Shown: piece after piece, positions 34,853 through 57,479 of the stretch | Numbering within the stretch: the stretch's first letter is position 1 | Layout of the letters: each line of letters begins with the position of its first letter | NCBI GenBank assembly: GCA_049472215.1 | Contig: JBLIRH010000002.1 | Location: 23,815 to 87,814 of the forward strand | Source of the DNA: Thermoplasmatota archaeon | GTDB taxonomy: Archaea > Thermoplasmatota > Penumbrarchaeia > Penumbrarchaeales > Penumbrarchaeaceae | DNA: 64,000 bases | Direction of reading: 5' to 3' | Notes under the pieces: generated by a model | Told to the model about the DNA's origin: nothing | Databases searched by the model: none | What the model saw: the letters and a program-made list of their open reading frames with translations, nothing else | Position numbers and translations under genes: made by a program

Positions 34853-35671
34853 ATGGAGAAGTTCAGGCTACTTGTTGATGAAACGGCGACCCCCTCCGAG
34901 AACATGGCAAGGGACGAGGCACTACTTAGAAGGGTGATAGCGAAGGAGTCCATGCCATGCATCCGTTTTTATCAATGGAGGCCTGCCGGACTTTCACTTG
35001 GGAGGTTCCAGAGCATCGAGAAGGGGGTCGATCTCGAGGCTTGTAATAGGTACGGGGTGGAGGTCGTGAGGAGATTGACAGGGGGGGAGGCGGTCCTGCA
35101 TGACGACGAGATCACCTATTCCATTATCGTTCCGGTGACGCATCCGAAGTTCGACGGCAAGGGGGTGGTGGACACCTACAGGACGATATCAAGGGCGCTG
35201 GTGAAGGGACTTCAGCTGACCGGGGTCGAATCCACCATGGCAGGGAGTGCCCCGACCCGTCCCGATCCTGCGGGGCAGGGGGTCTGCTTCTATACACCGA
35301 CGGTCTACGAGATAGTGGCCAAGGGGAAGAAGATCATAGGTTCCGCACAAACGAGGGAGAAACTTATCATCCTACAGCACGGATCGATCCCCATCGATTG
35401 GGATATCGACAAGCAGCTCGATGTGATGGGGATCCCCTCCGGGAACCGGGAGGTCTTCAGGGATCTCTTTACGACGAGGGCAACAACAATATCGGAACAG
35501 CTGGGGGGACGGCCGGGGTTCTATGACCTGGTCAAGAACTTCTCGAAGGGGTTCGAGGAGGTCTTCGATATGGAGCTGGAGCCGTCGGATTATTCCATGC
35601 AGGAGAGGAAGATGGCGGATTGGCTGGTGGAGAAGAAATACGCCAACGATGAATGGAACCTAAAGTTGTAG
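34853..35671 (+). CDS. lplA: Lipoate-protein ligase A catalytic domain protein (short archaeal LplA type)
   Basis: NMARDEALL, YQWRPAGLSLGRFQ, RRLTGGEAVLHDDEITYS and KKIIGSAQTR (catalytic Lys) are present. The ATG at 34853 is preferred. The ORF-track GTG at 34838 overlaps the upstream stop. Confidence 0.75.
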   Translation: MEKFRLLVDETATPSENMARDEALLRRVIAKESMPCIRFYQWRPAGLSLGRFQSIEKGVDLEACNRYGVEVVRRLTGGEAVLHDDEITYSIIVPVTHPKFDGKGVVDTYRTISRALVKGLQLTGVESTMAGSAPTRPDPAGQGVCFYTPTVYEIVAKGKKIIGSAQTREKLIILQHGSIPIDWDIDKQLDVMGIPSGNREVFRDLFTTRATTISEQLGGRPGFYDLVKNFSKGFEEVFDMELEPSDYSMQERKMADWLVEKKYANDEWNLKL

Positions 35672-36247
35672 CCCCTCGTCAATTTCCTGGAAGGTTTCAC
35701 CATCCAAACAACGTAACGAGAGCAACTCGGGTTCTGATGCAATAGCAATTCCCTTGTATCCTTTCTTCCTCCTTTTTCTGATAACAAGGAAAATGATCAG
35801 GATAATTACTGCAGAATGGAAGATAATGAATATCCAGAATGCGTCCTTTTCCCCATATTGTGTTAATTTGATCTTGTAATCCAGTCGGTCCAACGGGAAG
35901 AACTCGTTATCATTGACGACAACGATATAGCTCCTCCCCTTTGGGAGGTCCACATAGGTTTTAATGGATGATATATCATTGAAGCTCTTCTCGGGTTTGA
36001 AAAGGGCCCTATTAATGAAATTATAATATTCATCCTCTTTGAAGATGTAAATATCCATATTCTCATTCGAATCTATTCTGATGTATATCCTGTTGAATAT
36101 CCACGTCTTGAACGAATATTCCTTGTATGTCCCGATCCGAGACTCCTCATCCAGTACCTTTCTTGCGGAAATGGGGTGAGGGAGGAAAATGATGATCAAC
36201 AAAAGGACCAATGTTACTATAGCAAAGATCTTCCTTTGCATCCTCAT
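35660..36247 (-). CDS. Signal-peptide plus C-terminal-TM protein, function unknown (AT-rich gene)
   Basis: 195 aa with an N-terminal IFAIVTLVLLLIIIFL, a beta-rich middle and a TM helix (FWIFIIFHSAVIILIIFLVI) followed by RKRRKKG. Its composition is I/K/N/Y/F-rich, unlike its neighbours. Confidence 0.45.
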   Translation of the reverse strand: MRMQRKIFAIVTLVLLLIIIFLPHPISARKVLDEESRIGTYKEYSFKTWIFNRIYIRIDSNENMDIYIFKEDEYYNFINRALFKPEKSFNDISSIKTYVDLPKGRSYIVVVNDNEFFPLDRLDYKIKLTQYGEKDAFWIFIIFHSAVIILIIFLVIRKRRKKGYKGIAIASEPELLSLRCLDGETFQEIDEGLQL

Positions 36248-36696: not shown

Positions 36697-37383
36697 TCAT
36701 TTCGCCTCGACGTCTATCACAACATCTTCCGACCTCACCTTGTCGTAGAACTCCTTCAGATTGTCGCTTATGTGAAACTTCTTATCCATCTTGCTGTAGA
36801 TAACGTCTATCAGCAGGACCAGTGCTCCCTTTATCAGAAGATAGATGGCAGTGGACAGGGCGAGCATCACGCCTCCGATGATGAAGATGATGATGTAGGC
36901 CGCAAGATGAAAACCCGTGAACCCCGTGAAGTAGATCGATATGGAATCGGTCGTGACGACTGCGAGGATTATGAGCCCGACCACGATATCTATCTTGATG
37001 AGTCCTTCCCGGACCGGTTTGATGATGCTCTCCACCGCATCGTCCTTGAGAGCCTTTATCGGATGATAGACGATCTCCAGGACCCCCCAGAACTCCCTGA
37101 TCTCCATCCCGGTGAAGACTGCTATCCCGACGTAGATGAATCCGAAACACAGGTGGACGAGGTTCGGAACATCTATATTCCAGGGGTCGAAGAGGTCCCA
37201 TAGCAATATCGGTATGTGGATCAGGAGTGAAAGCAGCAGCAGGGGAACCCCCAGGATCAGGATCATCAGGAAAGCCGAGTGCCTCTTGGCTTTCTCTATC
37301 GGGTATCTGTCCCTGAACCTCTCGAGCATCCGGAGTATCCAGGAGAGTGATCTCACGAACGCTCCCTTTCTCCGTTTCCCCAT
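36697..37383 (-). CDS. Polytopic membrane protein, function unknown
   Basis: 228 aa with about five hydrophobic helices (AFLMILILGVPLLLLSLLIHIPILLW, LCFGFIYVGIAVF, IVVGLIILAVV, LAAYIIIFIIGGVMLALSTAIYLLI). I prefer it over the overlapping frame 36782..37393, which is Arg/Gly/Pro-rich nonsense. Confidence 0.5.
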   Translation of the reverse strand: MGKRRKGAFVRSLSWILRMLERFRDRYPIEKAKRHSAFLMILILGVPLLLLSLLIHIPILLWDLFDPWNIDVPNLVHLCFGFIYVGIAVFTGMEIREFWGVLEIVYHPIKALKDDAVESIIKPVREGLIKIDIVVGLIILAVVTTDSISIYFTGFTGFHLAAYIIIFIIGGVMLALSTAIYLLIKGALVLLIDVIYSKMDKKFHISDNLKEFYDKVRSEDVVIDVEAK

Positions 37384-37422: not shown

Positions 37423-37824
37423 CTACAGCCTCCCTCGCCCGGAACGTATCCTTTCCGTTCTTCCCTTATCCCTGGGTTTCGCCTCCCACCCCAGTTCCGA
37501 AAGGAGCAAAAGCTTCCCGTCCGGAAGAGGATAGACAGATGACACCACGGACATGGTCCCCCTGGCCGAGGGTATCAGGCTGGTCCGCAGGTTCTGGGGG
37601 GCCCCCGTATCAACAGCTATCTTCAAAGCATCGGGTAGTCCCATCACCTTTGCCATTGGGATTGCTTCTTCGAGCTTCAATTCGGAGATAGGGGTATCGT
37701 TCAATGGAGGGAGGTCATGGGAAGCCGCCTCGTTCATCCAGAGAACGGACATGGACACAGGATCGATGAGGGCCGCCTTGACCTTAACCGGGCCGTTCTT
37801 ACCATCAATTTTTCTGTCCACCAT
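37423..37824 (-). CDS. Hypothetical protein
   Basis: 133-aa ORF with protein-like composition and a basic tail. I recognise no family. Confidence 0.35.
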   Translation of the reverse strand: MVDRKIDGKNGPVKVKAALIDPVSMSVLWMNEAASHDLPPLNDTPISELKLEEAIPMAKVMGLPDALKIAVDTGAPQNLRTSLIPSARGTMSVVSSVYPLPDGKLLLLSELGWEAKPRDKGRTERIRSGRGRL

Positions 37825-37892: not shown

Positions 37893-38240
37893 TTACCTCT
37901 TGCAGGACATCCTTCCCTGCTCAACCATATCCTCGGCATACCCGAGCCGGCCGGCCTCCTTTATCCTTCTCAGGCTCTCGTTCCTGTTGGAGCGAAGGAC
38001 GAAGGAAATGGTCCTCGCAAAGAAATTGTTCAGCTTTGCGCAATCCTTCGGATCAGAGAATTCGGCACAATCGGCACAGGTGGAATACCCGTGCTCCATG
38101 TTGCACGTTCTCACCTGGCACCAGGTCGCCTTCTCGTTCTTGGCACAACCCGGACACCTGCCGTTCTTGAACTTGCCGCATTCGCCGCAGTAGAGCCCGC
38201 AGAATGCAACAAGATCGGCGTTCGCTAATTTCTCGGCCAT
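37893..38240 (-). CDS. Cys-rich DUF3795-like protein
   Basis: FCGLYCGECGKFKNGRCPGCAKNEKATWCQVRTCNMEHGYSTCADCAEF matches the DUF3795 cysteine pattern. Confidence 0.6.
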   Translation of the reverse strand: MAEKLANADLVAFCGLYCGECGKFKNGRCPGCAKNEKATWCQVRTCNMEHGYSTCADCAEFSDPKDCAKLNNFFARTISFVLRSNRNESLRRIKEAGRLGYAEDMVEQGRMSCKR

Positions 38241-38378: not shown

Positions 38379-39236
38379 ATGCGGGATGACGAGGAAGAGG
38401 ATGAGGTCTGGGAGTCCAATAGTCTTTTGATATGGACACTGATCGCTGGAGCTGCGATCCTGACCCTGATATTCATTTGGGCCGCTATAAGGTTCAGCTG
38501 CTATGCACTTGCAGGTGCGGCTCTGCTTCTTGGTCTGATCGTTATCCTCGCCATCATGGGCCGCAGAAAAATGGAGAAGGAACGCTGGTTCAAGAAACTG
38601 TACCTCAAGGAACTGACAAGGTTCCCCGGCCGGACCTTCATCGGAGTTCTGCCGGAACATATCCGTAGAACGATGAATTCGTCCTCCTTTGACTTCGGCA
38701 TCAACCAATGGTGGGTCTCAATAGAAAGGCGGGGGCATACTATTTACACGGGAACCTTCTTCCGCAGCGTTCCGTCGATGGGTAATGATGATCACCAGCC
38801 GCCGGAGTACCACCTTTGTGCGGTGATGGAGCTCCCGCTCAAGGGAAGACATGTTAGCTTGACAAAGAACATCGACCTCCTGAGCCTGCCGAGGAGATTG
38901 GGCATCTCGGATTACAGATACGGCAATAAGTACTTCGAGGATAATTTTACCATCGTGGCGGAACCGAAGGACGAGGGGCATCTCATACTCACGGGCAGGG
39001 TGATGGATCGGATAATGAACAGCCTTAACGACTGCGAGCTCTACATTGGGGACGGTCTGCTTATCGTATCCGACAGGATCTCGGAGCTCTACCTTTATCA
39101 GAGCGCTAAGAACCCTGATGTGGACTGCATCCTCTACAAATGGAACGACAGCGTACCGGACAAGATGATCGATCTAAGTGAGACGTTACTCGATAGGGAT
39201 CCGAAAGAAGTGATCATTGCAGCTGAAGTTCCATGA
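38379..39236 (+). CDS. Membrane-anchored hypothetical protein (DUF3137-like layout)
   Basis: 285 aa with two N-terminal TM helices (LLIWTLIAGAAILTLIFIWAAI, ALAGAALLLGLIVILAIM) followed by a soluble domain. It converges on the hydrogenase large-subunit gene with only ~21 nt between the stops. Confidence 0.4.
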   Translation: MRDDEEEDEVWESNSLLIWTLIAGAAILTLIFIWAAIRFSCYALAGAALLLGLIVILAIMGRRKMEKERWFKKLYLKELTRFPGRTFIGVLPEHIRRTMNSSSFDFGINQWWVSIERRGHTIYTGTFFRSVPSMGNDDHQPPEYHLCAVMELPLKGRHVSLTKNIDLLSLPRRLGISDYRYGNKYFEDNFTIVAEPKDEGHLILTGRVMDRIMNSLNDCELYIGDGLLIVSDRISELYLYQSAKNPDVDCILYKWNDSVPDKMIDLSETLLDRDPKEVIIAAEVP

Positions 39237-39257: not shown

Positions 39258-40556
39258 TCACTTCTCGACGATCTTCACCATGTGGGTGGCACATGAGATG
39301 CAAGGATCATATGCCCTTGCGATGAGCTCCATCTTGTTTCGGAGCTCCTGCTTTTCCAGCCCCTGGTCGCTGAGGAGCTTTCCGACCTTCTTCATGTCCT
39401 GGTCGATGATCAGATTGTTGATAGCGGTGGGGGTGATGATATTGGCATCGGTTATCATGCCTTCTTTGTCGATCCAATATTCATGATAGAGCGTCCCCCT
39501 GGGGACCTCCAGCGAACCTATTCCATGGCTCTCCCTGGGCTCCACCTTCATGGGCTTCTCATCCTTTATCCCCAGATACAGCAATCTGTCGATGAGCTCC
39601 ATCGCGCGTTCCCAGGCATAGATACACTCAAAGGCCTGGCCCAGGTTGTTGTGAAGTATGTTGTTCGATGGGAACGGGAAGAAGATATCCTTCGCCTCGA
39701 GGATGTGGGGGTGCCTGAACTCCTTCATGATGTTGAGCCTGGAAAGCGATCCCACCATCACGGCGTCCCCCCCGGAGGTCTTGCTCACCTTCGCTGTGGA
39801 CCATGGGATGATCTCCTCCTTGATCACCTTCCGGTAATCGGAGAGAGGGAACCTCCTGTCGTCAAGTGCGATCATGTCGCCCATCAACGTGAACTCGTCA
39901 TTTTCGGAGGAGACGAGCGTGGAATACGGAGCTGTCAGCTCCATCTCCGAGGGATACGACAACGATGAGAACAACCTGTAGGCCTCGACAGTATCCTTCA
40001 CGTTCTCCCTGAGCTTGTCTCGAAGCTCCACGAGCTTCCTTCTCGATGGGATCCCAGTGAAACCTCCGATTATCGGTTTCTCGGGATGTATCGGCCTGCC
40101 GCCGATGAGCTCCTGGATGTCGTTCCCGATCCCCTTCAGCTTCAGCGCCCTGTTGACCTCGACGGGATGGTCCTTGTAGAGGGCTATCGCGTTGGGCATC
40201 CCGAGATAGTCCGGCAGCGCAAGGAAATATGTGTGGAGATAGTGGCTCTCAAGGATCGATCCCATGTGTATGAGCTCCCTTAGAAGCTCCGTCTGCTCCG
40301 AAACCTCGACCTCGAATGCCTGCTCGATCGCTTTTATCGATGCAAGCTTGTGGGAAACGGTGCATATGGCGCATATCCTGGTCACTATGGAGGGAACATG
40401 CCTGAAGTATTTGCCCCGGACCAGGACCTCGAAGAACCTGGGACCCTCGGTGATCGAGAAATTTACATCCTTTATCCGGTCACCGTCGAATTCCAGGAAT
40501 ATCTCCCCGTGCCCTTCGACCCTGGCGACCGGCTCTATCTCTACGTACTTCTTCAC
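39258..40556 (-). CDS. [NiFe]-hydrogenase large (catalytic) subunit, group 3-like
   Basis: 432 aa. The N-terminal ARVEGHGEI and RICAICTVSH (nt 40350..40379) and the C-terminal DPCISCATH (nt 39282..39308, checked on the DNA) supply both CxxC pairs that ligate Ni-Fe. Only 7 aa (MVKIVEK) follow the His. The GTG start overlaps the upstream stop (GTGA). Confidence 0.9.
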   Translation of the reverse strand: MKKYVEIEPVARVEGHGEIFLEFDGDRIKDVNFSITEGPRFFEVLVRGKYFRHVPSIVTRICAICTVSHKLASIKAIEQAFEVEVSEQTELLRELIHMGSILESHYLHTYFLALPDYLGMPNAIALYKDHPVEVNRALKLKGIGNDIQELIGGRPIHPEKPIIGGFTGIPSRRKLVELRDKLRENVKDTVEAYRLFSSLSYPSEMELTAPYSTLVSSENDEFTLMGDMIALDDRRFPLSDYRKVIKEEIIPWSTAKVSKTSGGDAVMVGSLSRLNIMKEFRHPHILEAKDIFFPFPSNNILHNNLGQAFECIYAWERAMELIDRLLYLGIKDEKPMKVEPRESHGIGSLEVPRGTLYHEYWIDKEGMITDANIITPTAINNLIIDQDMKKVGKLLSDQGLEKQELRNKMELIARAYDPCISCATHMVKIVEK

Positions 40557-41245
40557 TGGTCATCCCTCCTTGATCCGGCAAGATGCTCCATGACCTTCTT
40601 TCCTTCCTCGGAGTAGGAGAAGAGCTTGATCAGATCGATCACGTGGTCGAGGTTGATCCCGTACTTCGTGTAATCCCTGACCGCGAACTTGATGAGGTCC
40701 TCGTGGAATACGACCCCCCTGCAGCCGATACAGGTCGAACCGTTCCTCGTGCAGTAAGCGTTGCACCCGGAATATGTGAGAGGTCCGAGACAGATGTTTC
40801 CCCGGTAAAGGTTGCAGGATTCTCCCTGAAGTGGACACATAGCGCATACGACCGTTGCTGACAGGTCAAGGTCCCTGCAGAGAGGAACATACGGGCAATC
40901 TCCCGATGTCGGGCAGTCCCGGCAGCTCTGCTCGTGCTGGGACATTGTCAGCTGAAGGATCGTCCTCCTGAGATCGTAGAGCTTCCTCGAATTGGTATGG
41001 ATGATCATGTTCTCCCTGATGGGGGTCTGGCAGGATTCCCTGATGATCTTCGACTTCCCCTCCCCCAGTTCCACCAAGCACATCCTGCAGTTCCCGGTGT
41101 TCAATTTCCCGAGCACCGGATTGTAGCAGATGTGGGGAAGCTCCACTCCCCTCTCAATGCAAAGCTGCAGTATGGTCTGGCCGGGTTTCCCGAAATACTC
41201 CTTGCCGTCAATGACCACCCTCACCTTCTTCTCCACCATCGTCAT
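40553..41245 (-). CDS. HoxU/NuoG-N-terminal-like Fe-S protein fused to the medial/distal-cluster half of a group 3 [NiFe] small subunit
   Basis: 230 aa. The [2Fe-2S] motif is C40..C53xxC56..C72 (HICYNP...GNCRMC...ESC). The His-ligated [4Fe-4S] is HEQSCRDCPTSGDC (Hx3Cx2Cx5C). Then follows VCAMCPLQGESCNLYRGNICLGPLTYSGCNAYCTRNGSTCIGCRG, with 8 Cys in the CLGPxTxxGCxAxC...CxGCxG pattern of MvhG/FrhG/sulfhydrogenase-delta C-termini. Confidence 0.8.
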   Translation of the reverse strand: MTMVEKKVRVVIDGKEYFGKPGQTILQLCIERGVELPHICYNPVLGKLNTGNCRMCLVELGEGKSKIIRESCQTPIRENMIIHTNSRKLYDLRRTILQLTMSQHEQSCRDCPTSGDCPYVPLCRDLDLSATVVCAMCPLQGESCNLYRGNICLGPLTYSGCNAYCTRNGSTCIGCRGVVFHEDLIKFAVRDYTKYGINLDHVIDLIKLFSYSEEGKKVMEHLAGSRRDDQ

Positions 41246-42988
41246 CTACTCCACCTCCTCGACGGGCTTGTCGAAGGGGCCCATCCTTTCAAGCTCCTTG
41301 TAGAGCCTGGCTTTCAGGATCTGGTTCGACCAGTGGATAGCTCCCTGATTGTAGTTCTTCATCCTATTGATGCGGTCCTCGATGACACTTGGGTCCGTAT
41401 TGGGATACTGACCGCCTCCGGTGATGCACCCCTTCAGGCACGGAATGAACTCCACGAAATCGTAATCCTCGATATTGGAGAGAACATTGTCCGCATTGGT
41501 CAGGTCGGTCACCGTCGCGACCTTGAAATGAACGTCGGGATAGTCAACGGTCCTAACCACGGTCCCATCCTCGAGAACGATCTTCTGAAGCACATTCTGC
41601 CTTACCTTCAGGGCCATGGTGTAGTCCACGACCTCGTCCCCGAGCCCATCGGTCGCAGGCGTATCCGCAAGGATATCGATCAACGGCTCCGTCATGACGA
41701 ACCTGTCGAAGGAGACCGTTTCGATATCGCAGAGGTCGACGTTGATGCGGTTCTTCTGGATCAGCCTCGAGACCTCCTTGGTGGAGATCACAGCATCGAA
41801 GTCCGCCATCTTCTTCATGGCAGTGCACGGAGTGATCATTGCCAGGAAAACGGGCCCGTACCTCTTCTCGATCATCTCCCTGGCGATCGGGCCTGGTCTC
41901 GCTTCAAGATCGAGATAGTCCTTGTACTCGAATTTGTGCTTGGTGATCCAGATGTTGGCGGAGGGGCACCACGACATGATCTTGGTCCTTCCCGGATCGT
42001 CCAGCGAATCCTGGACCGTCTTGAATATCGACACATGCTGGGCTGCGGCGAAGTTGAAGACCTTCCACATGCCGAGCTGCTTCAGAGCGACGATGACCTT
42101 CCTCATGAGGGCGTGGGTGTTGTCAGGTTCATCGACCTGAAGGTTCTCAGAAAGTGAGGCCAGGATCATGGGATCGACCAGGGCGACCACGCGCTCTCCG
42201 CTTTTCAGGGCGTTCTCGAGCTTCTTGATGTTGTGTTCCCTCTCCTTCAGGGCCCCGCAGAAGCAGAACTGCACGCACTGGCCGCATGAGATGCAGGTCG
42301 TCCTAGCAAAGGTCGACCCGAAGGGGGTCGAGACCCTTTCCTTCCAGTTCCTGCCCACCATGGAGATCGCCTTTACCCCGAGTCCCTCGTCGCAGACATT
42401 GACGCATCTCCGGCAGGATATGCACTTCTCGGGCAGATAGTTGACCACGGGGTCCTTGATCTCCTCAACATCATCCGGTAACTGCCTGTCGATGGGCAGG
42501 GGGAGCGTCACGTTCTTATGGGGGTCCATGGTAGCGAACTTCTGGAAGTAGTAGATGACCTCGGACTCCCTGACGGGGCAGCCCCTTATGGTGTAATCGA
42601 CCTCTATGAAATAGTCCAGGGGATACGCCTTCTTCAGCGGCGTGGTATTGATCATGGTGGTCCCGTAGACCGCCTTGTAAGCTTCGGAGGCTCCCTGTAT
42701 GTCCTTTCCCGTGGCAACCCCGCCGGATGCAGCGCAGGTCCCTATCCCCACCACCCTTCTCGAGTTCTTCCTGATGTGGTGGAGGACCTCGATATCCTCC
42801 TCGGTCACCACCGCACCTTCCACGAAGGCTATGTCAAGCATCCCGAAATCCTGCCCCGAGGAGGCCATGGAGAATACCCTGATGTCAAGGGATTCGAAGA
42901 TCTCCAGAAGCTCCTCCTCGCAGTTGAGAATGGCCAGCTGGTCGCCGGCGCAGGAAGTGAGACCGAATATGCCGACCTTCACCTTCAT
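41246..42988 (-). CDS. Fusion protein of a [NiFe] small-subunit proximal-cluster domain, a 2x[4Fe-4S] ferredoxin and an [FeFe]-hydrogenase H-domain (with its small-subunit-like C-terminus)
   Basis: ORF 41246..43114 trimmed to the ATG at 42988, which forms an ATGA overlap with the NuoF-like stop. The first ~155 aa (MKVKVGIFGLTSCAGDQ...GIGTCAASGG...IRGCPV) are the Oxidored_q6-type small subunit. CISCRRCVNVCDE and CISCGQCVQFCFC follow. The last ~330 aa align along their length to clostridial HydA (LKQLGMWKVFNF / MSWCPSANIW / ITPCTAMKK / DAVISTKEVSRLI / EFIPCLKGCITGGGQ / RINRMKNYNQ). Confidence 0.8.
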   Translation of the reverse strand: MKVKVGIFGLTSCAGDQLAILNCEEELLEIFESLDIRVFSMASSGQDFGMLDIAFVEGAVVTEEDIEVLHHIRKNSRRVVGIGTCAASGGVATGKDIQGASEAYKAVYGTTMINTTPLKKAYPLDYFIEVDYTIRGCPVRESEVIYYFQKFATMDPHKNVTLPLPIDRQLPDDVEEIKDPVVNYLPEKCISCRRCVNVCDEGLGVKAISMVGRNWKERVSTPFGSTFARTTCISCGQCVQFCFCGALKEREHNIKKLENALKSGERVVALVDPMILASLSENLQVDEPDNTHALMRKVIVALKQLGMWKVFNFAAAQHVSIFKTVQDSLDDPGRTKIMSWCPSANIWITKHKFEYKDYLDLEARPGPIAREMIEKRYGPVFLAMITPCTAMKKMADFDAVISTKEVSRLIQKNRINVDLCDIETVSFDRFVMTEPLIDILADTPATDGLGDEVVDYTMALKVRQNVLQKIVLEDGTVVRTVDYPDVHFKVATVTDLTNADNVLSNIEDYDFVEFIPCLKGCITGGGQYPNTDPSVIEDRINRMKNYNQGAIHWSNQILKARLYKELERMGPFDKPVEEVE

Positions 42989-44283
42989 GACCTGCCACCT
43001 CCCATGGGACAGACCTTTGAAGGGCACTCTCCGCGGATATGAGAGTCGAAGACCTCCCTGAAATTGTTGTAGGCGGAGGAGAATGGGGTGGAAGCCGTCT
43101 TTCCAAGGCCGCAAATTGAAGCGGTGTCCATGACACCGGAGATCTCCATCGCCCGCTCAAGCTCCCCGTCCTTGGCTTTGCCCGTTCTCAACCTCTCCAA
43201 TATCCTTGATACGTGATGGGTCCCGGTCCTGCAGGGCGTACACTTTCCACAGCTCTCGTGTGAGAAGAAACCCATGAGATTGTGAGCGATATCAACAACG
43301 CAGCTCTTCTCGTTGAAGACCACGATCACCCCCGATCCCAGGGTGAGGCCGTCGGCCTCCGCATCCTCCATGGAGAACTTCGTCTCCAACCTCTCTTTGG
43401 GTATCAGCGAACCGGATGCGCCCCCGAGGAGCACGAAACCGATCTCCTTTCCGTCCACCCCGCCGCCGAGGTCGTTGATGATATCCATCAACGTGCATTT
43501 ACCCATTTCAACCTCGTAGGCACCTGGAGACTTGACATGCCCCGTCAGGGAAACGATCCTCGTCCCCGTCGATTGGGTTGTTCCTATTGACCTGTAATTG
43601 TCCCCGCCCTCCATGATGATGTAGGGGACGTTGGCAAGGGTCTCAACGTTGTTGACACAGGTGGGTTTATCGAACACACCCGAGACCGAGGTCCTTGTTA
43701 TCTTTATCTTGGCCTGGCCGGCCATCCCCTCGATGGATTGGAGGATCGCGGAAGATTCACCGCAGACATATGCCCCTGCACCCTTTACGACCTCGATCTC
43801 CAGATCGAAGTTCTTTCCAAGGATCCCCTTACCGAGAAGGTTGCGGTCCTTTGCCGTCTGAATGATGGACCTGAGCTTTGGGGGAAGGAAAGGGTATTCC
43901 CCGCGATTGTAGATGAAGGCCTTTTCGATGCCCATCGCATAGGCCGCGATCGTCATTCCCTCGATCAGGAGGAATGGGTCCGTCTCCACCAGCGTCCTGT
44001 CCTTAATAGTGCCCTCCTCGCCCTCGTCGAAGTTTGCAATGAGGTACTTCGGTGTTTTGTTCTGCATGGCCACTGATTCCCATTTGAAGCCGGCGTGGAA
44101 CCCGGCCCCTCCCCTTCCCCTGATGCGGGATTTCGAGACCTCGTTCACGACCCACCTTGAACCTTTATCAAGGGCTTTCTTCAATGCCTCGTAACCGCCC
44201 GCGCTGATGTAATGGTCGATGTTCCACCCGTCGTAACCGCCCCTTCCACGGTTCTTCAAGAGGATCCTGGTTTCCTGGACCAA
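42985..44283 (-). CDS. NuoF/HoxF/HydB-like NAD(P)H-binding FMN and [4Fe-4S] subunit
   Basis: GRGGAGFHAGFKWE is the FMN site. ANFDEGEEGTIKDR, GAGAYVCGESSAILQSIEG, ESCGKCTPCRTG and ICGLG supply the N3-type cluster. The TTG start abuts the upstream TGA. Confidence 0.9.
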   Translation of the reverse strand: MVQETRILLKNRGRGGYDGWNIDHYISAGGYEALKKALDKGSRWVVNEVSKSRIRGRGGAGFHAGFKWESVAMQNKTPKYLIANFDEGEEGTIKDRTLVETDPFLLIEGMTIAAYAMGIEKAFIYNRGEYPFLPPKLRSIIQTAKDRNLLGKGILGKNFDLEIEVVKGAGAYVCGESSAILQSIEGMAGQAKIKITRTSVSGVFDKPTCVNNVETLANVPYIIMEGGDNYRSIGTTQSTGTRIVSLTGHVKSPGAYEVEMGKCTLMDIINDLGGGVDGKEIGFVLLGGASGSLIPKERLETKFSMEDAEADGLTLGSGVIVVFNEKSCVVDIAHNLMGFFSHESCGKCTPCRTGTHHVSRILERLRTGKAKDGELERAMEISGVMDTASICGLGKTASTPFSSAYNNFREVFDSHIRGECPSKVCPMGGGRS

Positions 44284-44763
44284 TCACTCACCCCCCTTTC
44301 TCAGATCCTCGATCAGCTGGATCGCCTTTCCAATGTCCAGGTTGCGGTGGACGTCGTGATCGATCATCATGGCAGGTGACCCATCACACTGGCCGATGCA
44401 CGAGCTTTCCTCCAAAGTGAACAAGCCGTCGGCCGTGGTCTCTCCCTCCTTTATGGATAGGTGACCGCTGATGCCTGCCATGAGGTCCTTCGATCCCTTG
44501 CCGTGGCAGACGACACCGCGGCATAGCCTGATGACATGCTTTCCTTCCGCTTTCAATGTGAATTGTTCATAGAAGGTGACTACCGAATATATCCGCGTCA
44601 AGGGGATCTCAAGAGCATCTGCGATGTACCTTGCTGTCTCCCAGGTGATGCAGCCCCATGTCTCCTGGATCTTGTGAAGAAGAAAAAGCACTGGGGAATC
44701 GAGTCCCTTCGCCTCAGCCAGCAATCCGTCCAGAACCTTTATGTCCTTGACCCCGATCACCAT
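44284..44763 (-). CDS. NuoE/HoxE/HydC-like thioredoxin-fold [2Fe-2S] subunit
   Basis: 159 aa. IRLCRGVVCHGKGS ... ESSCIGQCDGSPAMMID gives the Cx4C...Cx3C pattern of NuoE-type [2Fe-2S] proteins. Confidence 0.85.
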   Translation of the reverse strand: MVIGVKDIKVLDGLLAEAKGLDSPVLFLLHKIQETWGCITWETARYIADALEIPLTRIYSVVTFYEQFTLKAEGKHVIRLCRGVVCHGKGSKDLMAGISGHLSIKEGETTADGLFTLEESSCIGQCDGSPAMMIDHDVHRNLDIGKAIQLIEDLRKGGE

Positions 44764-44847
44764 CTGCTACACCGACGGCCTGTAGCTCACCATGTTATTA
44801 AAACTATCTGTGCAAGGGATCTGCAGCCGTCCCTCCTGGAGCAGATC

Positions 44848-45957
44848 TTAGCATATCCTTGGGACCGGATCCCCGTAGGGCGGGTCCATGATCCGCTTTC
44901 CGCCTACGACCGTCTGAAGGATCACGTTCTTCCCCTCGGGCCCCACGATCCCGATCACTGCGGCATCCTTACCCGCCTCCGTCCTTCTTATCGCTTTGAG
45001 GACCTCATCCTCGCTTCCCGGAGCAACGGCGAGGATGACCTTGCCCTCGTTCCCTATCTCGAAGGGATCGAACCCGAGCATGTCGCAGGCACTCGAGACA
45101 GCTTCCTTTACGGGGATATCGGATTCCCTGACCAGGATAGAGCACCCGCTCTTGGAGCACCATTCGTTCAATCCGTTGGCCAGCCCGCCCCTTGTCAGGT
45201 CCTTGGCGGCAATAACGCCTCCTACGTCCAAGGCGGCCTCGATCACTTCCCCCATCGGAGCGAGGTCGGAGACCAGGTCGGTTTCGAAACCGTAGCCCTC
45301 CCTGAACGAGAGCAGGGATATTCCATGGTCCCCCACGGACCCGGAAAGAATGATGATGTCCCCTTCCCGGACCGCATCGTCCCTCAGCCATCGGGAAACA
45401 GGTGATCTGGCCCCCCGCTTCGATCTAAGCTCTGATGCTCGTTCGAAGTTCCGTTGCAGAGCCGGATGCATCTCTCCGATACCGGCAGTGGTTATGACCA
45501 TCCCCTTCACCCCTCCCTTCTCCACGACCTTCGTGTCCCCCGTTACCACGGTTACATGGGCCCTTTCAGAAGCAATTCCGATCGACCCCGAGATCCTGCG
45601 GAGGAGTTCTTTATCGGTCCCTTCCTCGATCACCATCGATAGTGCGAGGGCTTTAGGCCTTGCCCCGACGACCCAGAGGTCATTCACAGTTCCAAAGACC
45701 GAGAGGGACCCAATATCCCCCCCGGGGAATTCGAGAGGCCATACGGTATGACCGTCGATGGTAAAGGCGACATTATCAATGACGGCGGAATCGTCCAGGA
45801 GTTCCGGCGGGACCCCTTCCCGGTCTTCGCCTCCCGATGACCTTCTAACGAAGGGGATCACGAGCTCCTTCAGCATCCTCTGCATCAGCTCGCCTCCTGC
45901 GCCCTCGCCGATCTTGACCTTCCTGTCACCGTTCATAAGTGGCCCCAAAAAGCTCAT
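44848..45957 (-). CDS. hypE: [NiFe]-hydrogenase maturation protein HypE (carbamoyl dehydratase)
   Basis: It has an AIR-synthase-like fold and the diagnostic C-terminus ...PPYGDPVPRIC. The N-terminal IGEGAGGELMQRML resembles the E. coli HGSGGQAMQQLI. The start is ATG 45957 or 45936. The ORF-track GTG at 45996 lies inside the upstream gene. Confidence 0.85.
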   Translation of the reverse strand: MSFLGPLMNGDRKVKIGEGAGGELMQRMLKELVIPFVRRSSGGEDREGVPPELLDDSAVIDNVAFTIDGHTVWPLEFPGGDIGSLSVFGTVNDLWVVGARPKALALSMVIEEGTDKELLRRISGSIGIASERAHVTVVTGDTKVVEKGGVKGMVITTAGIGEMHPALQRNFERASELRSKRGARSPVSRWLRDDAVREGDIIILSGSVGDHGISLLSFREGYGFETDLVSDLAPMGEVIEAALDVGGVIAAKDLTRGGLANGLNEWCSKSGCSILVRESDIPVKEAVSSACDMLGFDPFEIGNEGKVILAVAPGSEDEVLKAIRRTEAGKDAAVIGIVGPEGKNVILQTVVGGKRIMDPPYGDPVPRIC

Positions 45958-45967
45958 GTGGAACTGA

Positions 45968-48900
45968 CTAATCACCTTTGCGGTCCCTTCTGACACGGAA
46001 CGTGAAGAAGAGGTAGCCGCCGAGGCCGATCAGCGCTATCGCCGATACTATTGAGATAACTATTATCATCATGCGCTCACCGGAGGAGCGTCCACCATTG
46101 GAAACGATCCTGAACATATCCGAGATGTTCATCGTTCCACCATAGGTCCCGTTGAGGGTCTGGGCCTCTATCTCCAGAGCGATCAGGAGCTCTTCATCGA
46201 GTTTGAGACCTTCGGGCAGCTCTATCGTGATCCGTCCGTTCGACCTTGGTCCGATCATTATGTTCCTCTCTCCGGGAAGGGACATCGTCCCGACCTCGCC
46301 TGTGATCGTGAAACGAAGGATCAGGGGACTGTCGTTCTCGAGGGTTATCTCAAGATACGGTATCTCGGTGTCTATATTTCTTTCAGGTTCGGAGAAGACC
46401 GCCCTCCATGGCATATCGCCCCAGCCCCAGAGGGAGACAATAACATAGATCGTATCGAAGACAACATTACCTGCCCGGTCCTCAACTTTCAGGTCGATCC
46501 TGTGCTCCCCGGGGCTCAGGTCCCTTACCGTTCTCATTATCGACTGGGTGCTGATATGGATCACACCATCCTTGTCCGATGTCCATGTGACGTTCAATAT
46601 GTCGCCGTTTGGCATGTCAGGATCATACCCGGATGCCTCGAAGACGATCAGTGATCCCGGAAGAAGAACGCTTCCGTTCACCGGCTGAACGATGGAAACG
46701 TCTCGGGGAGGGTCTTCGACGGGCTCGACGATCACTCCGATAAGGTAGAATGCTTTCTCTTCGCCGTCCGATACGGAGATCTGAACATATCCTTCCCCCG
46801 CCTGGTCCTCCTCCGGCACTATCCAGAGGAGCCCGTCAGCGATCGTAGCCTTGAAGGGGAAGTATTCGGTGATGGCGAACATGAGCTCGTCCCCGTCTGG
46901 GTCCTCGAAATCATTCAAAAGGTCGCTGTACAAGGGACCTTCGTCCTCCACCATGTAAAGCACAAGTTCGCTGCCCCCGAAGATCGGCCTTTGATTGTTG
47001 TGGGCGGTGGTTCCGAAGATTATCCCGGACAGTTCGGACACGGGGCCGTCATCATCGACCGAGGCCATGACATATTCGTAGGTCGTGTTATCCGAAAGGC
47101 CCATGTCCTCATAGAACGGGACCGATCTGGAGAGCCTTGTTATCTCCTTGAAATCCTCATCCCCGGGATCCCTCCGATAGATGATATATCCCCAGATATC
47201 CTGGGTGAGAGGGGGGTCCCATTCGATGACAAGCGTGTTATTGCCGCGGGCCCTTGCCTCGATGTTCCTCGGGGGGCCGGGGGGTATGATGTCCACTGGG
47301 ATTCCCTTTATGATATCCGTACTATCCGAGGTCGATCCGGCATGATCAATGGAGACCATCCGGAACGAATACTCCTCACCGTTCTGGAGGCCCCTCACGA
47401 TGATGGCGTTGTCAGGATAGTAGACGATTATCGGATTGAATTCAGTCTGTCCCTTTTTCACGTAGATCAAGGCCCGGTACAGGTCCTCCCCTACCCAATC
47501 CCATTCCAGGGAGATGGCCTTGCCCTCGGGGATCGGTTCCAGCCTGAAGTTCCCCGGGGGGAGGGGTTTCTGGTCCACGTCCACCTGTGTAGTATTGCTC
47601 CACCCCTTCGATCCTACATCATTGTATGCCCTGACCCTGAAATACTGCGTGGTGTTCTCGTTCCCGTACACAGGCAAGAATGCATCCCGGGTGGACCAGG
47701 AAACGAGCTTCGATGAGAAATCCTTCGAGTTCGAACGCTGTACGATATATCTAGATCCTTCATCCGTCCAGCTGAGGTCCACCCTGTCAGATCCCCTCTC
47801 GTAACTGGATCCCAATTTTGGTATGTCCGGCATATCCCAGTACCTGTCCATCATGAGGGGGTAGGGATCACGTGCAAGAAAGGGGATGTCGGTATCTCCG
47901 ATGCCGTCACCCGGCTTTCGACCGTTGGAGCCGTCATCTTCTCCGGTGTATGAATCGTAATAATTGCCCTCGAGGGAAGTGGAGTTGTACCAGGTGGAGA
48001 GGGGGGGGCCGGTTGCCACCTTCTCGTTGTCGATGAAGGAGTTGTAGAATATCCGGGAATCCTCGCCCTCGTCGATCGCCTCCTTGTTACCTATGAACCT
48101 GCTGCGGGTGATGATGGAGTTGAACGGGTCTTCAAGTCCCTTGTCGCAATCGATGAACTCGGAATCCCTGACGACGCCGTTCGAGAGGTCCTTCACCGTC
48201 ACCATGTTCCTGAATGTGCTTCCGTGGATGGTCGATGTACTGGTGGAGGAAAGCTCAATTCGCCCCCCCTCTACCTGCGTATCTATCAAAGATAGATTCT
48301 GTGAAGATACCAATTGAATTGAATTATTGATGAGCCTGGAATCAATTAAAGTGACCTTGTCGATCCTGACATCCAATCCCACGGTACAATTCGATACGGA
48401 AAAGCTCTTGTAGACATTCCTGCCCAGCAGTATCGCACCCTTGCCGTAGTTGGATATCGAGACCCTGGTCATCGGCGTTGAGTAAAAGGGGATTATCGCG
48501 GTTCCCGTTCCGCTGCCCTTCATATCCAACCCATCTATCGCCGACCCCCATTCCATGTTCTTAATTGTGCAGTTCAACATTCGCACATCTTCGAATTCCA
48601 GCTTTCCCCATGTGAGATCGAAACCTTGGATGTAGGAGCGGTTGATGGTAAGGGAGGATGGCACATTCCTTACACCCTGAAGAGCGATCGTTGACGAGGG
48701 GGCCCCAGACGGCAAGAACAATATGCGGGAGCTGTCATCGGGGGTGTCAGCATCGCCGTCGAGATCGGTCGCGTTGAGATACCCATAGTTCAGTATCCCG
48801 ACATCTTTCATCATAAGAGAGGAATTTATCAGGGAAATATGGCCGCCGTTCGTGATACCGATATTCTCAACGACCACCGTTGAGTTCTTGATCGTGAGGT

Positions 48901-49105
48901 GATCGATCACTCCGATACCCTGACCGCAAAGAACCGATAGGTTCTCCCAGGTGACCGGGCCGGTCGATGCATTCACCATGAAGGTTTCGTTGAACTCGAG
49001 ATCGTATCCCGACCATGTTCGTCCCTGTACCGAACCCGTTGGTTCTAACTGGGGGACCGAAACCAGCAGAATGAGGGATAACAGCACTATACGAACTCTT
49101 TCCAC
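45968..49105 (-). CDS. Giant cell-surface protein with a right-handed beta-helix, two FN3 domains, cadherin/Ig-like modules and a C-terminal TM anchor
   Basis: 1045 aa with a signal peptide (IVLLSLILLVSVPQLEP) and beta-helix repeats in the N-terminal half. FN3 units are PPGNFRLEPIPEGKAISLEWDW...YSFRMVSIDHAG and PPRNIEARARGNNTLVIEWDPP...YEYVMASVDDDG. The TM helix is MMIIVISIVSAIALIGLGGYLFF, followed by RVRRDRKGD. Confidence 0.7.
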   Translation of the reverse strand: MERVRIVLLSLILLVSVPQLEPTGSVQGRTWSGYDLEFNETFMVNASTGPVTWENLSVLCGQGIGVIDHLTIKNSTVVVENIGITNGGHISLINSSLMMKDVGILNYGYLNATDLDGDADTPDDSSRILFLPSGAPSSTIALQGVRNVPSSLTINRSYIQGFDLTWGKLEFEDVRMLNCTIKNMEWGSAIDGLDMKGSGTGTAIIPFYSTPMTRVSISNYGKGAILLGRNVYKSFSVSNCTVGLDVRIDKVTLIDSRLINNSIQLVSSQNLSLIDTQVEGGRIELSSTSTSTIHGSTFRNMVTVKDLSNGVVRDSEFIDCDKGLEDPFNSIITRSRFIGNKEAIDEGEDSRIFYNSFIDNEKVATGPPLSTWYNSTSLEGNYYDSYTGEDDGSNGRKPGDGIGDTDIPFLARDPYPLMMDRYWDMPDIPKLGSSYERGSDRVDLSWTDEGSRYIVQRSNSKDFSSKLVSWSTRDAFLPVYGNENTTQYFRVRAYNDVGSKGWSNTTQVDVDQKPLPPGNFRLEPIPEGKAISLEWDWVGEDLYRALIYVKKGQTEFNPIIVYYPDNAIIVRGLQNGEEYSFRMVSIDHAGSTSDSTDIIKGIPVDIIPPGPPRNIEARARGNNTLVIEWDPPLTQDIWGYIIYRRDPGDEDFKEITRLSRSVPFYEDMGLSDNTTYEYVMASVDDDGPVSELSGIIFGTTAHNNQRPIFGGSELVLYMVEDEGPLYSDLLNDFEDPDGDELMFAITEYFPFKATIADGLLWIVPEEDQAGEGYVQISVSDGEEKAFYLIGVIVEPVEDPPRDVSIVQPVNGSVLLPGSLIVFEASGYDPDMPNGDILNVTWTSDKDGVIHISTQSIMRTVRDLSPGEHRIDLKVEDRAGNVVFDTIYVIVSLWGWGDMPWRAVFSEPERNIDTEIPYLEITLENDSPLILRFTITGEVGTMSLPGERNIMIGPRSNGRITIELPEGLKLDEELLIALEIEAQTLNGTYGGTMNISDMFRIVSNGGRSSGERMMIIVISIVSAIALIGLGGYLFFTFRVRRDRKGD

Positions 49106-49529: not shown

Positions 49530-50993
49530 TCATGGACCGGGAGTGGGTTTTCTACCCCTTCTTCCCGAGATCATAAGGACGGCGAAAAGTAAGACCATTA
49601 TTGTCCCGGCCGAACAACCAACGATCAGCCAGAAACCATTTCCGGGGCCTTCTTTCTTGTTCTGGTCAGGTTCGACCGGAACATCATCGTCGACAGCGTC
49701 CCCCTTATCGAATGCCACTGGGTATTCGTCCGTGGCATTCGCGATACCGTCGATGATATAGGGGTCGTCAACGATGCTGTCGTTGTCATGATCCGGGCCC
49801 CAGTGGTCGGACCAGAGGTTCCCTTCGGTCCCTTCGTACCAGCTGTTGGACTCCCCGTTGTCCATAGCCTGGAAACCCTTCGGGCCGTTATCGTAGAATC
49901 TATTTGCATAGACCATGTTATGCCTGGATGGAGGACCCCTCCCCAGCCATGTGTCGATGGTGACAGCATGCCACGTTCCGTTGGAGAAAACGTTATGATG
50001 GACCATCGCTCCATCGGTCGAATCGAGGTACACGGCGTTCTCGTTCCCTTCGAAGTCCGAACCGGTTATTGCGATGCCGCTGGAATCGCTCAGGAACACA
50101 CCATATGTGTTCTTGTAGAAATTGCATTTCGATATGATAGAATCTGATGCAGCGGAGAGCTGGATGCCGTTGGTGTTGTAACGGATCGAGGTCTCCTCGA
50201 TCGAGGAGTTGGCGATACTCATCATGAATATGCCGTTGTTGTTCGTATCTATGTAGGACCTCGCTATCCTTATCCCGCTGGAAACGATCGACCCGTTCGA
50301 GGTCTCAGAAATTATTCCGAAGCCGTAGTTCAAGGTTGTAGTAGTGTCTATTATTTCCACCTCGCTGGAATCGACCAGATGTATTCCGGCTGTGAGTCCC
50401 AATATGGCTGTGTTCGATTCTGCTATAACGCTGCTGATGGTCACGTTACGGGACATGTTCACCAATATCCCGTTCTCCACGTTGACCTTGCAGAGGACCC
50501 TTTCTATGGAAATGCTCCTGCCCTGGACATATACCCCATCGTAGGAGCCGAAGAAACCCGAATCACCGATCCAGATGCCTGAACAGTTTCGGACCTCGAC
50601 CCCCCTAGTGCAGTAATATGTCGCCACGTTCCTGACCCTGACATTGGTGGAGTTCTCGATAAGGATGCCCGGGTGCTTTGGGAGTTTCCCGTTCACGAAA
50701 AGGTTGTAATCCACCACCACGTGTCTTGTAGAGTTCCTGATGACCACCCCCGGGGAGGTCGTGGTATTGAACCAGAAACCGGAGATCAAGTACGGATCGT
50801 CCAAGGTTCCGTTGCCGGTCACTCCCTCAGGAAGCTCCCCTGTGAAATTTGAATCGTTGATATGGATAGGGCCGTGGAGCTTCAATAATGGACCCTCGTC
50901 ATCCTGTCCGGAAACGATGCCATGGAACGATAGGATGATAACCAATGAGAACAAGGCCAGCAGAGATCTAGAAAGTTTGCCCATTGATCGCAC
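49530..50993 (-). CDS. Surface-anchored right-handed beta-helix protein (NosD/PbH1-repeat type)
   Basis: 487 aa with a signal peptide (LLALFSLVIILSFHGIVSG). It has about 10 PbH1-like repeats (VRNVATYYCTRGVEV, ISKCNFYKNTYGVFL, ITGSDFEGNENAVYL, VHHNVFSNGTWHAVTI) and a TM helix (FWLIVGCSAGTIMVLLFAVLMI). Confidence 0.7.
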   Translation of the reverse strand: MRSMGKLSRSLLALFSLVIILSFHGIVSGQDDEGPLLKLHGPIHINDSNFTGELPEGVTGNGTLDDPYLISGFWFNTTTSPGVVIRNSTRHVVVDYNLFVNGKLPKHPGILIENSTNVRVRNVATYYCTRGVEVRNCSGIWIGDSGFFGSYDGVYVQGRSISIERVLCKVNVENGILVNMSRNVTISSVIAESNTAILGLTAGIHLVDSSEVEIIDTTTTLNYGFGIISETSNGSIVSSGIRIARSYIDTNNNGIFMMSIANSSIEETSIRYNTNGIQLSAASDSIISKCNFYKNTYGVFLSDSSGIAITGSDFEGNENAVYLDSTDGAMVHHNVFSNGTWHAVTIDTWLGRGPPSRHNMVYANRFYDNGPKGFQAMDNGESNSWYEGTEGNLWSDHWGPDHDNDSIVDDPYIIDGIANATDEYPVAFDKGDAVDDDVPVEPDQNKKEGPGNGFWLIVGCSAGTIMVLLFAVLMISGRRGRKPTPGP

Positions 50994-56936: not shown

Positions 56937-57479
56937 ATGCCGCGCTGGGATGTCCACCTTAGCTTCGGTTTAATGGCGTTCATAGTCATATTCTCAGCTC
57001 TGCTCATGGGTTCCAGCGACGGGCGCTCCCTTGAAGGATATGCTCGCGCAGCTGTATTGTTCGGCATCGTAGGGCTGCTTGGAGGAGGCGCCCTGGTCTT
57101 CGGGTCGGTCCTTCCGGACATCGACGGGAAGGGGAAGGTCCGGTGGATGGTGGGTCCTGCCGTCGGCGCTCTGCTTTTCGTACCACCCCTTATCGGAACC
57201 TTCAGGAGCGGGGGGCCGAGCGGAGCAATGGAGTTTATCGAGGGAACAGGATCGCTTCTCTTCCTTCTGGGAACTGTTGTCGGTTATCTGCTTCTGCTCG
57301 TTCCCACGAGGCACAGGGGAATACTGCATAGCAAATGGACCTGCGCAGCATACGGAAGCGTCTGGGGAGTATACGTCTTCTACACCGCATCCATGGCGTT
57401 CGATCAGTCCATGATGATAGGCTCGATGGGAGCTCTGGGGTATGGATGGCACCTGGCCCTTGACGGCAGGTTACTCTAG
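56937..57479 (+). CDS. Polytopic membrane protein (possibly a DUF457-type membrane-bound hydrolase)
   Basis: 180 aa with five or six hydrophobic helices. His residues lie near the N-terminus (WDVHLSFG) and the C-terminus (GWHLALDG). Confidence 0.4.
   Translation: MPRWDVHLSFGLMAFIVIFSALLMGSSDGRSLEGYARAAVLFGIVGLLGGGALVFGSVLPDIDGKGKVRWMVGPAVGALLFVPPLIGTFRSGGPSGAMEFIEGTGSLLFLLGTVVGYLLLLVPTRHRGILHSKWTCAAYGSVWGVYVFYTASMAFDQSMMIGSMGALGYGWHLALDGRLL

Follow-up and report, generated by a model that had tools for sequence, protein, structure and literature searches.

Does an archaeal operon that joins parts of [NiFe] and [FeFe] hydrogenases to a flavin module encode a single enzyme, and is that enzyme new? 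The question is raised by a metagenome-assembled genome (MAG) of a Thermoplasmatota archaeon, in which five minus-strand genes at 39258-44763 of the 64-kb stretch of DNA analysed here (the window) combine components of both hydrogenase families. The context is archaeal, the window also encoding CDP-archaeol synthase, geranylgeranyl reductase and a class I lysyl-tRNA synthetase. Judged by its fusion protein, gene set and motifs, the operon is a member of the hybrid hydrogenase family for which the names group F [FeFe] and group 3f [NiFe] were proposed (Greening et al., Cell 2024; PMC11216029). The first-pass annotation of this DNA had pointed to a report of hybrid hydrogenases from archaea, and that precedent is real and has the same architecture. 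Its suggestion that the locus was the strongest candidate for a novel system fails, because the group F/3f family was published in 2024; the architecture is thus already described and is not a new system. In the literature searched, no later work on group F or group 3f was found beyond Greening et al. (2024).

Group F is defined by a HyhS-HydA fusion accompanied by contiguous HydB, HydC, HydD and HyhL, and the hybrid family was described from 21 archaeal genomes, Thermoplasmata included (Greening et al., 2024). In the window, a single 580-residue chain carries an N-terminal group 3 small-subunit domain and a C-terminal H-domain, and the genes of the four partners HyhL, HydB, HydC and HydD are contiguous with it. 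The fusion has the conserved cysteines for binding the H-cluster and three [4Fe-4S] clusters, except that D16 replaces one cysteine of the proximal cluster. Relatives were collected by scanning one genome per GTDB species; one of the loci so found, L005, is the contig modelled by Greening et al. (2024), from Methanomassiliicoccales archaeon UBA147 (sp002496385). The fusion matches this locus at E=7e-68 (tblastn, 30% identity over residues 2-558) and group A proteins at E ~1e-16 to 1e-22, and it has the motifs SWCP, PC..K and PCxxGCxTGGGQ in common with UBA147. The H-domain groups with group F when group A sequences serve as the only outgroup, and an unbootstrapped neighbour-joining tree of the F-domain plus H-domain region (358 columns) nests the window clade among the fused proteins, apart from group A. 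A glutamate-synthase (GltA/GltD-like) domain in HydB, a feature of the reference that is not defining, is lacking from the HydB of the window.

The five open reading frames (ORFs) run from 44763 to 39258 in the six-frame ORF list, in the order hydC-hydB-hyhS::hydA-hydD-hyhL and with hypE before hydC. hydC (44284..44763, minus strand as for all five) encodes 159 aa and is followed by hydB (42985..44283, 432 aa, TTG start), the hyhS-hydA fusion gene for the group F [FeFe] catalytic subunit (41246..42988, 580 aa, ATG at 42988), hydD (40553..41245, 230 aa), predicted to encode a conduit subunit with four Fe-S clusters, and hyhL (39258..40556, 432 aa, GTG start). Read on the reverse strand, the hydC-hydB junction is GAG-TGA/TTG with zero gap, that of hydB and the fusion gene is an overlapping ATGA of 4 nucleotides (nt), that of the fusion gene and hydD is TAG/ATG, again with zero gap, and that of hydD and hyhL is a 4-nt overlap, GTGA. 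The five genes, their coordinates and these four junctions are as the first-pass annotation had given them, in support of its view that they form one coupled unit. GGAGG-type Shine-Dalgarno motifs lie 5-10 nt 5′ of the starts of the fusion gene, hydD and hyhL. The mechanical ORF of the fusion gene reaches back as far as a TTG at 43114; MKVKVGIFG, encoded from the ATG at 42988, opens the NCBI record and all homologues, and the fusion protein is 100% identical to NCBI MGA1792471.1 (‘Thermoplasmatota archaeon’). The hydC-hydB (TGA, 44284-44286) and fusion-hydD (TAG, 41246-41248) separations are in-frame and consist of a single stop. Stop read-through, pyrrolysine and selenocysteine were considered for both and rejected: in two related loci, L002 and L003, the fusion gene and hydD overlap by 4 nt and hydC and hydB lie in different reading frames, and read-through or pyrrolysine is unlikely because both junctions are thus frame-shifted.

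The fusion chain holds three modules. Pfam finds Oxidored_q6 at residues 13-149 (E=1.5e-21), two Fer4 matches and Fe_hyd_lg_C at residues 266-525. The first module, the N-terminal (proximal-cluster) domain of a [NiFe] small subunit (residues 1-165; 42494..42988, minus strand; Oxidored_q6), aligns over residues 2-165 to residues 2-163 of the delta subunit of Pyrococcus furiosus sulfhydrogenase I (SHI) at E=3e-26 in a PDB sequence comparison. It is followed by a HydA-type 2x[4Fe-4S] F-domain with Fer4 family matches (residues 181-260; 42209..42448, minus strand) and an [FeFe] hydrogenase H-domain (residues 261-545; 41354..42208, minus strand), and residues 175-540 align contiguously to residues 130-505 of Thermotoga maritima HydA, covering both its F-domain and its H-domain. 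The H-domain proposed for the end of this chain is borne out by PF02906 (E=1.2e-22, profile positions 2-245 of 245), by PDB 7p5h_A (E=2e-32) and by fold. In an AlphaFold2 model built from an alignment of 25 homologues, the predicted local distance difference test score is ~85-95 across the H-domain, and residues 160-178 form a low-confidence linker. Foldseek returns bifurcating HydA subunits and CpI as the top matches of this model (7p5h_A, E=2.7e-23), with a root-mean-square deviation of 3.3-3.4 Å over ~415 columns against T. maritima HydA. The Pfam domains predicted earlier for all five proteins were likewise found, except Fe_hyd_SSU, for which Pfam and NCBIfam gave no match in the operon proteins.

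The proximal-cluster ligands of the fusion are C13, D16, C85 and C137. Residue 16 (codon 42943-42945) is Asp, giving CAGDQ vs CEGCQ, and UBA147-type relatives have Cys; Asp is found throughout the window clade, and Asp or Glu also in the homologues P0033, P0034 and P0036. An Asp-ligated proximal cluster is known from the F420-reducing hydrogenase. The two F-clusters would be bound by C189/192/195/199 and C232/235/238/242.

Where, then, is the rest of the small subunit? HydD of the reference family is described as NuoG-like with four clusters (Greening et al., 2024), and the gene had been annotated here as HoxU-like. That label suits the N-terminal half, a HydA/NuoG/HoxU N-terminal module (residues 1-125; 40871..41245, minus strand; Fer2_4 E=1.8e-15 and NADH-G_4Fe-4S_3) with ligands for a [2Fe-2S] cluster (C40/C53/C56/C72) and a His-[4Fe-4S] cluster (H104/C108/C111/C117); residues 6-123 align to residues 2-115 of 7t2r_A and 4-117 of 8a6t_A. 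It does not suit the C-terminal half, which is the C-terminal half of a group 3 [NiFe] small subunit (residues 132-222; 40580..40852, minus strand). This half matches positions 165-248 of the NCBIfam sulfhydrogenase delta model (E=2.4e-13) and residues 162-255 of the SHI delta subunit (PDB 9nez_A, E=3.8e-13), and eight Cys at residues 134-175 are enough for two [4Fe-4S] clusters of medial/distal type. On these alignments, the break in the small subunit and that in the HydA-type protein both fall at a domain boundary, and the pieces are exchanged between two chains. Chain 3 combines the small-subunit N-half with the HydA F-domain and H-domain, and chain 4 combines the HydA N-terminal [2Fe-2S]/[His-4Fe-4S] module with the small-subunit C-half. 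The resemblance of HydD to a small subunit was evidently already seen by the original authors, because the structure of the small subunit MvhG (5ODC_E) served as their cofactor template for HydD (Greening et al., 2024).

Two types of arrangement emerge when thirteen full-length loci are queried by tblastn with the proteins of the window. Ten loci, UBA147 included, have the order hyhS::hydA-hydC-hydB-hydD-hyhL, and HydB in UBA147-type loci is ~1050 aa long, consisting of a ~145-aa N-terminal extension, the NuoF core and a Fer4_20 plus Pyr_redox_2 region (~480 aa, GltD/NfnB-like), as in the HydB proteins of L004 (1049 aa) and L007 (1055 aa), both with Fer4_20 plus Pyr_redox_2. The second type comprises five loci, those of the window, L001-L003 and L081, with the order hydC-hydB-hyhS::hydA-hydD-hyhL and a HydB of 413-432 aa that is NuoF core only. 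L001-L003, from three independent MAGs that include the 2017 Guaymas MAG ex4484_6, are 92, 75 and 74% identical to the window, and L081, a distant metagenome contig, 33%. The hybrid family as a whole is rare, because only 20 proteins were found at E≤1e-30 among 1.84 billion 50%-identity representatives, the window clade counting as one. We assume that the short-HydB type is probably already among the 21 published genomes, because ex4484_6 has been public since 2017, and for that reason it is not claimed as a new variant.

This recurrence also bears on whether the [FeFe]/[NiFe] mix could result from chimeric assembly or binning, or from the chance adjacency of two unrelated hydrogenase operons. 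The window does come from a MAG. However, the fusion lies within one ORF and recurs, at 73-92% identity, on many separate contigs of up to 192 kb, the five-gene order is repeated in L001-L003 and L081 and the same genes occur in another order in ten further loci, and the GC content is continuous across the locus. Furthermore, genes 3 and 4 each hold only part of the small subunit, so that neither ‘half’ would function alone. Together with the repeated finds on independent contigs, this split excludes a chimera for practical purposes, and we assign it a negligible probability.

Is the H-domain of the fusion, then, a working hydrogen site? All four H-cluster ligands are present (C341, C388, C517 and C521), as are K392, the Lys that hydrogen-bonds a cyanide ligand, and P273, the Pro of the APx motif. 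Purifying selection is strong on every domain, the H-domain included: ω, the nonsynonymous to synonymous rate ratio, is 0.04-0.17 for the H-domain against L001-L003 and similar for the other domains, with synonymous divergence near saturation and the values rough. The pocket differs from that of group A sequences in a MAFFT alignment with them. W340 stands at the position of the proton-relay Cys (CpI C299), and Trp is almost invariant here among relatives (SWCP); the remaining proton-pathway residues of CpI are changed from E279/S319/E282/R286 to T324/D360/D327/D331, and both second-sphere methionines from M353 to T386 and from M497 to I515. The window was also searched for HydE, HydF and HydG, other Hyp proteins, a maturation endopeptidase and a GltD-like protein, and hypE alone was found; most archaea with [FeFe] hydrogenases lack HydEFG (Greening et al., 2024).

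Two other readings of the H-domain stay alive, namely a sensory or regulatory role like that of groups C and D and a cubane-only (Nar1-like) electron-transfer or structural appendage on an enzyme whose [NiFe] site catalyses, given the altered proton pathway, the absence of HydEFG from the window and a relative, P0039, in which receiver and kinase domains are fused to the same module. In P0039 (859 aa, from the representative library), receiver and histidine-kinase ATPase domains stand N-terminal to a small-subunit domain, 2x[4Fe-4S] and a shortened H-like module with SWCK. This fusion is a hint that the relatives with short H-domains (P0017, P0040, P0042 and L007, 476-515 aa) may sense H2 or redox state. 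When loaded with synthetic [2Fe]adt, two SG8-5 fusion proteins evolved H2, one at 5% of the activity of CrHydA1 and the other at a low level (Greening et al., 2024), a result that can be read both ways: the activities are small, yet a group F fusion protein did evolve H2. No signalling output domain is encoded in the operon, and the retained ligands, K392 and P273 together with the selection on the domain speak for a functioning site. Hence, we consider an H-domain that is idle or sensory in vivo unlikely.

HydC and HydB make up the flavin module. HydC matches 2Fe-2S_thioredx (Pfam, E=1.8e-42) and NuoE/HoxE-type NCBIfam models, as a NuoE-like thioredoxin-fold [2Fe-2S] subunit with ligands C81/C86/C122/C126. 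HydB matches Complex1_51K, SLBB and NADH_4Fe-4S in Pfam, with glycine-rich flavin mononucleotide (FMN) and NAD(P)H motifs and one [4Fe-4S] cluster (C345, C348, C351 and C391); it is NuoF-like as first annotated, with the refinement that it is much shorter than the published reference HydB. Residues 4-426 align to residues 102-524 of the 584-aa Bfu-type beta subunits and to residues 148-570 of 630 in 8a6t_B, and the core is closest to Bfu-type beta subunits (376-356 bits vs 325 for Aquifex NuoF). HydB is without the N-terminal [2Fe-2S] extension, the C-terminal 2x[4Fe-4S] ferredoxin domain and the GltD-like module, and this minimal NuoE/NuoF pair is the sole nucleotide-binding module of the operon. 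The other catalytic chain, HyhL, is identified by homology as a group 3 [NiFe] large subunit: it matches NiFeSe_Hases (E=2.8e-29) and the NCBIfam ShyA/HydA alpha model, and its best PDB match, over the full length, is P. furiosus SHI alpha (E=1e-74). The RICAIC and DPCISCATH motifs noted earlier are intact, with Ni-Fe ligands C62/C65 and C419/C422, and a tail of 7 residues follows the His.

Every subunit and all cofactor ligands are encoded, and together these features lead us to favour a group F/3f hybrid that is most likely a cytosolic, non-bifurcating two-headed hydrogenase linked reversibly to NAD(P)(H). Chains 3 and 4 would have to interlock to rebuild both the small subunit and the N-terminal wire of HydA. 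The Ni-Fe site would then be wired through the proximal cluster to the medial and distal clusters of HydD, and the H-cluster to the two F-clusters; both arms would feed a common Fe-S chain through the N-terminal clusters of HydD to the [4Fe-4S] cluster of HydB and on to FMN. Because both arms would feed this common chain, the complex would link NAD(P)+/NAD(P)H to H2 ↔ 2H+ + 2e− at two sites of different chemistry and could operate as a simple reversible redox valve, its two heads probably differing in bias, affinity or inhibitor tolerance.

The published alternative is flavin-based bifurcation or confurcation, H2 + NAD+ + oxidised ferredoxin ↔ NADH + reduced ferredoxin. Bifurcation was proposed from an AlphaFold model of the UBA147 complex, which assigns NAD+ to the flavin module and a ferredoxin-type acceptor to the glutamate-synthase-like domain of HydB; the authors call the physiological role unclear, and the hybrids are known from metagenomes only, no complex having been purified (Greening et al., 2024). 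The reaction has been shown for HydABC and for the [NiFe] hydrogenase HydABCSL of Acetomicrobium mobile, whose partner set of HydB, HydC, NuoG-like, small and large subunits is matched here, and the HydB core is nearest to beta subunits of bifurcating Bfu-type enzymes. However, HydB lacks the GltD-like Fer4_20 plus Pyr_redox_2 region in which the low-potential site was put (Greening et al., 2024), and it lacks the N- and C-terminal cluster extensions present in every matched solved Bfu beta subunit; no GltD-like gene lies elsewhere in the window. Bifurcation by this complex is therefore quite unlikely in our judgement, and the reversible NAD(P)(H)-linked reading is the most economical because the GltD-like module and the accessory HydB clusters are absent.

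Several points weigh against the NAD(P)(H)-linked two-headed enzyme. The assembly of the complex and the route of its electrons are deduced by comparison with homologous solved structures (SHI, HydABC and HydABCSL) and with the AlphaFold model published for a relative that is 30% identical. H2 turnover in vivo at the H-domain is open to doubt because no HydE/F/G maturase is encoded in the window, and by alignment the H-domain lacks the whole canonical proton pathway and both second-sphere methionines. Thermodynamics allows NADH alone to drive H2 evolution only when the H2 pressure is very low, and surface clusters may provide a docking site for ferredoxin. Two H2 sites on one wire would be catalytically redundant, an arrangement that the original authors also call peculiar.

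A bolder reading sets the short-HydB loci apart as a distinct ‘type II’ sub-family, characterised by the C-B-fusion-D-L order, a bare NuoF-core HydB and often an Asp/Glu-ligated proximal cluster, with a non-bifurcating complex, a slow or regulatory H-domain and preservation of an ancestral exchange. If true, these loci would be functionally unlike the published model, as NAD(P)(H)-only two-headed hydrogenases, their H-domain without the canonical proton pathway would be a slow or regulatory H2 site, and the adjacent genes 3 and 4 would preserve the original reciprocal exchange of HydA and small-subunit genes from which the hybrid family arose. We hold this only tentatively, as rather unlikely.

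Upstream of the operon, hypE (44848..45996, minus strand; TIGR02124 E=2.4e-100, above cutoff), a [NiFe] maturation gene for cyanide-ligand synthesis, lies 84 nt upstream of hydC, a position kept in L001-L003. Between the two genes, a TATA-box-like element read from the sequence, TTTTAATAA (44795..44803, minus strand), stands ~36 nt 5′ of the hydC ATG and is a possible archaeal TATA box and operon promoter; its position suggests that the five genes can be transcribed independently of hypE. A scan inside the operon for sigma-70 promoters and intrinsic terminators gave no more sites than shuffled sequences, and is uninformative because its models are bacterial-type and archaeal promoters were not modelled. 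No second hydrogenase is encoded in the window.

The surroundings of the operon are unusually dense in very large predicted secreted or surface proteins with beta-helix/NosD, fn3, PKD, Big_9 and CARDB domains, among them two subtilases of 852 and 1453 aa. Such ORFs lie at 45968-49105, 49530-50993, 53012-55570 and 57471-61832, and at 15699-18353, 24650-26833, 28121-30076 and 3817-6258. The ORFs directly downstream of hyhL at 38379-39236 (plus strand), 37423-37824, 36697-37383 and 35660-36247 (minus strand) are without a Pfam family, and a Cys-rich DUF3795 protein is encoded at 37893-38240 (minus strand).

Among the relatives, four loci with the long-HydB hybrid cluster (L007, L009, L010 and L012) come from soda-lake sediment MAGs labelled ‘Balneolales/Balneolaceae bacterium’, with hypF upstream of the cluster in L012 and a maturation endopeptidase downstream in L009. 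The hybrid cluster is also present in L013, a Thermoplasmatota MAG recovered from these samples. Either the Balneolales-labelled loci are bacterial and belong to a family hitherto described from archaea alone, or they are archaeal contigs that were mis-binned.

What the operon offers is a complete, well-assembled example of the hybrid from a long contig, in a sub-lineage that as a whole lacks the GltD-like module required by the published model of bifurcation. Its five chains add up to ~1830 residues, fewer than in any other version of the complex, which makes it the simplest target for heterologous assembly, cryo-electron microscopy and tests of whether the two H2 sites are redundant, differently biased or regulatory. 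The reciprocal split of HydA and the small subunit bears on how two unrelated hydrogenase families became coupled. The remaining interest lies in a minimal-diaphorase sub-lineage that misfits the bifurcation model, its Asp-ligated proximal cluster and the cleanness of the reciprocal split.

How does the complex compare with known systems? Group 3d HoxEFUYH (PDB 5XF9) has a NuoE/F/G-type diaphorase and a [NiFe] dimer as here, with a small-subunit domain that holds the proximal cluster only. The counterpart of HoxU is the HydD N-half together with the F-domain of the fusion, whereas HoxU in Hox is undivided and without the small-subunit C-half. Hox also has no H-domain, and the large subunit of the window is nearer to group 3b than to HoxH (1e-74 vs 3e-45). 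Membership in Hox group 3d was rejected on these grounds: the large subunit nearest to group 3b, the split HoxU equivalent and the presence of an H-domain.

The group 3b SHI of P. furiosus (PDB 9NEZ, 5YXY) provides the best solved match for the large subunit (E=1e-74), and its delta subunit the best solved match for both small-subunit halves (residues 2-163 for gene 3 and 162-255 for gene 4). In contrast to SHI, the window has a NuoE/F flavin module in place of the beta and gamma subunits (flavin adenine dinucleotide, NADPH), a split small subunit and an H-domain. Membership among the group 3b sulfhydrogenases was rejected, the operon and the window having no beta or gamma homologue and delta being split; in this test, the NCBIfam scores of the operon are all far below the equivalog cutoffs.

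Group A3 HydABC (T. maritima 7P5H, Thermoanaerobacter kivui 8A6T) is matched in sequence and fold by the F-domain and H-domain of the fusion (HydA residues 130-505); the HydD N-terminus resembles HydA residues 1-117, and the HydB and HydC cores are homologous. In the window, by contrast, two genes share HydA between them, its parts alternating with those of a [NiFe] small subunit, and a [NiFe] large subunit is encoded as well. The H-cluster motifs TSCCP, MPCxxK and ExMxCxxGC of HydABC correspond to SWCP, TPCTAMK and EFIPCLKGC. Membership in the Bfu-type HydABC enzymes was rejected, since HydB lacks the end domains, HydA is not a single chain and the motifs differ.

A. mobile HydABCSL (PDB 7T2R/7T30) shares with the window NuoE-, NuoF- and NuoG-like subunits together with a [NiFe] large subunit. 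Its 7t2r_E (179 aa, proximal cluster only) matches residues 2-150 of the fusion, 7t2r_A matches HydD residues 6-123, 7t2r_B matches HydB and 7t2r_D matches HyhL. It is bacterial, its HydA is without an H-cluster domain, and its HydB of 597 aa has extra N- and C-terminal cluster domains, both of which the HydB of the window lacks.

The UBA147 reference differs from the operon in degree and in detail. The fusions are ~30% identical and the partners 36-42%, the gene order is A/S-C-B-D-L there vs C-B-A/S-D-L in the window, and HydB has ~1050 aa vs 432 aa, the window protein being without Fer4_20 plus Pyr_redox_2 and the ~145-aa N-terminal extension. The reference has a Cys at the proximal cluster vs Asp16 in the window, where hypE moreover lies directly upstream. 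The two agree in the HyhS and HydA fusion, in contiguous hydB, hydC, hydD and hyhL, in a small-subunit-like HydD C-terminus, in all H-cluster and Ni-Fe ligands, in the SWCP variant of the L1 motif and in an archaeal host.

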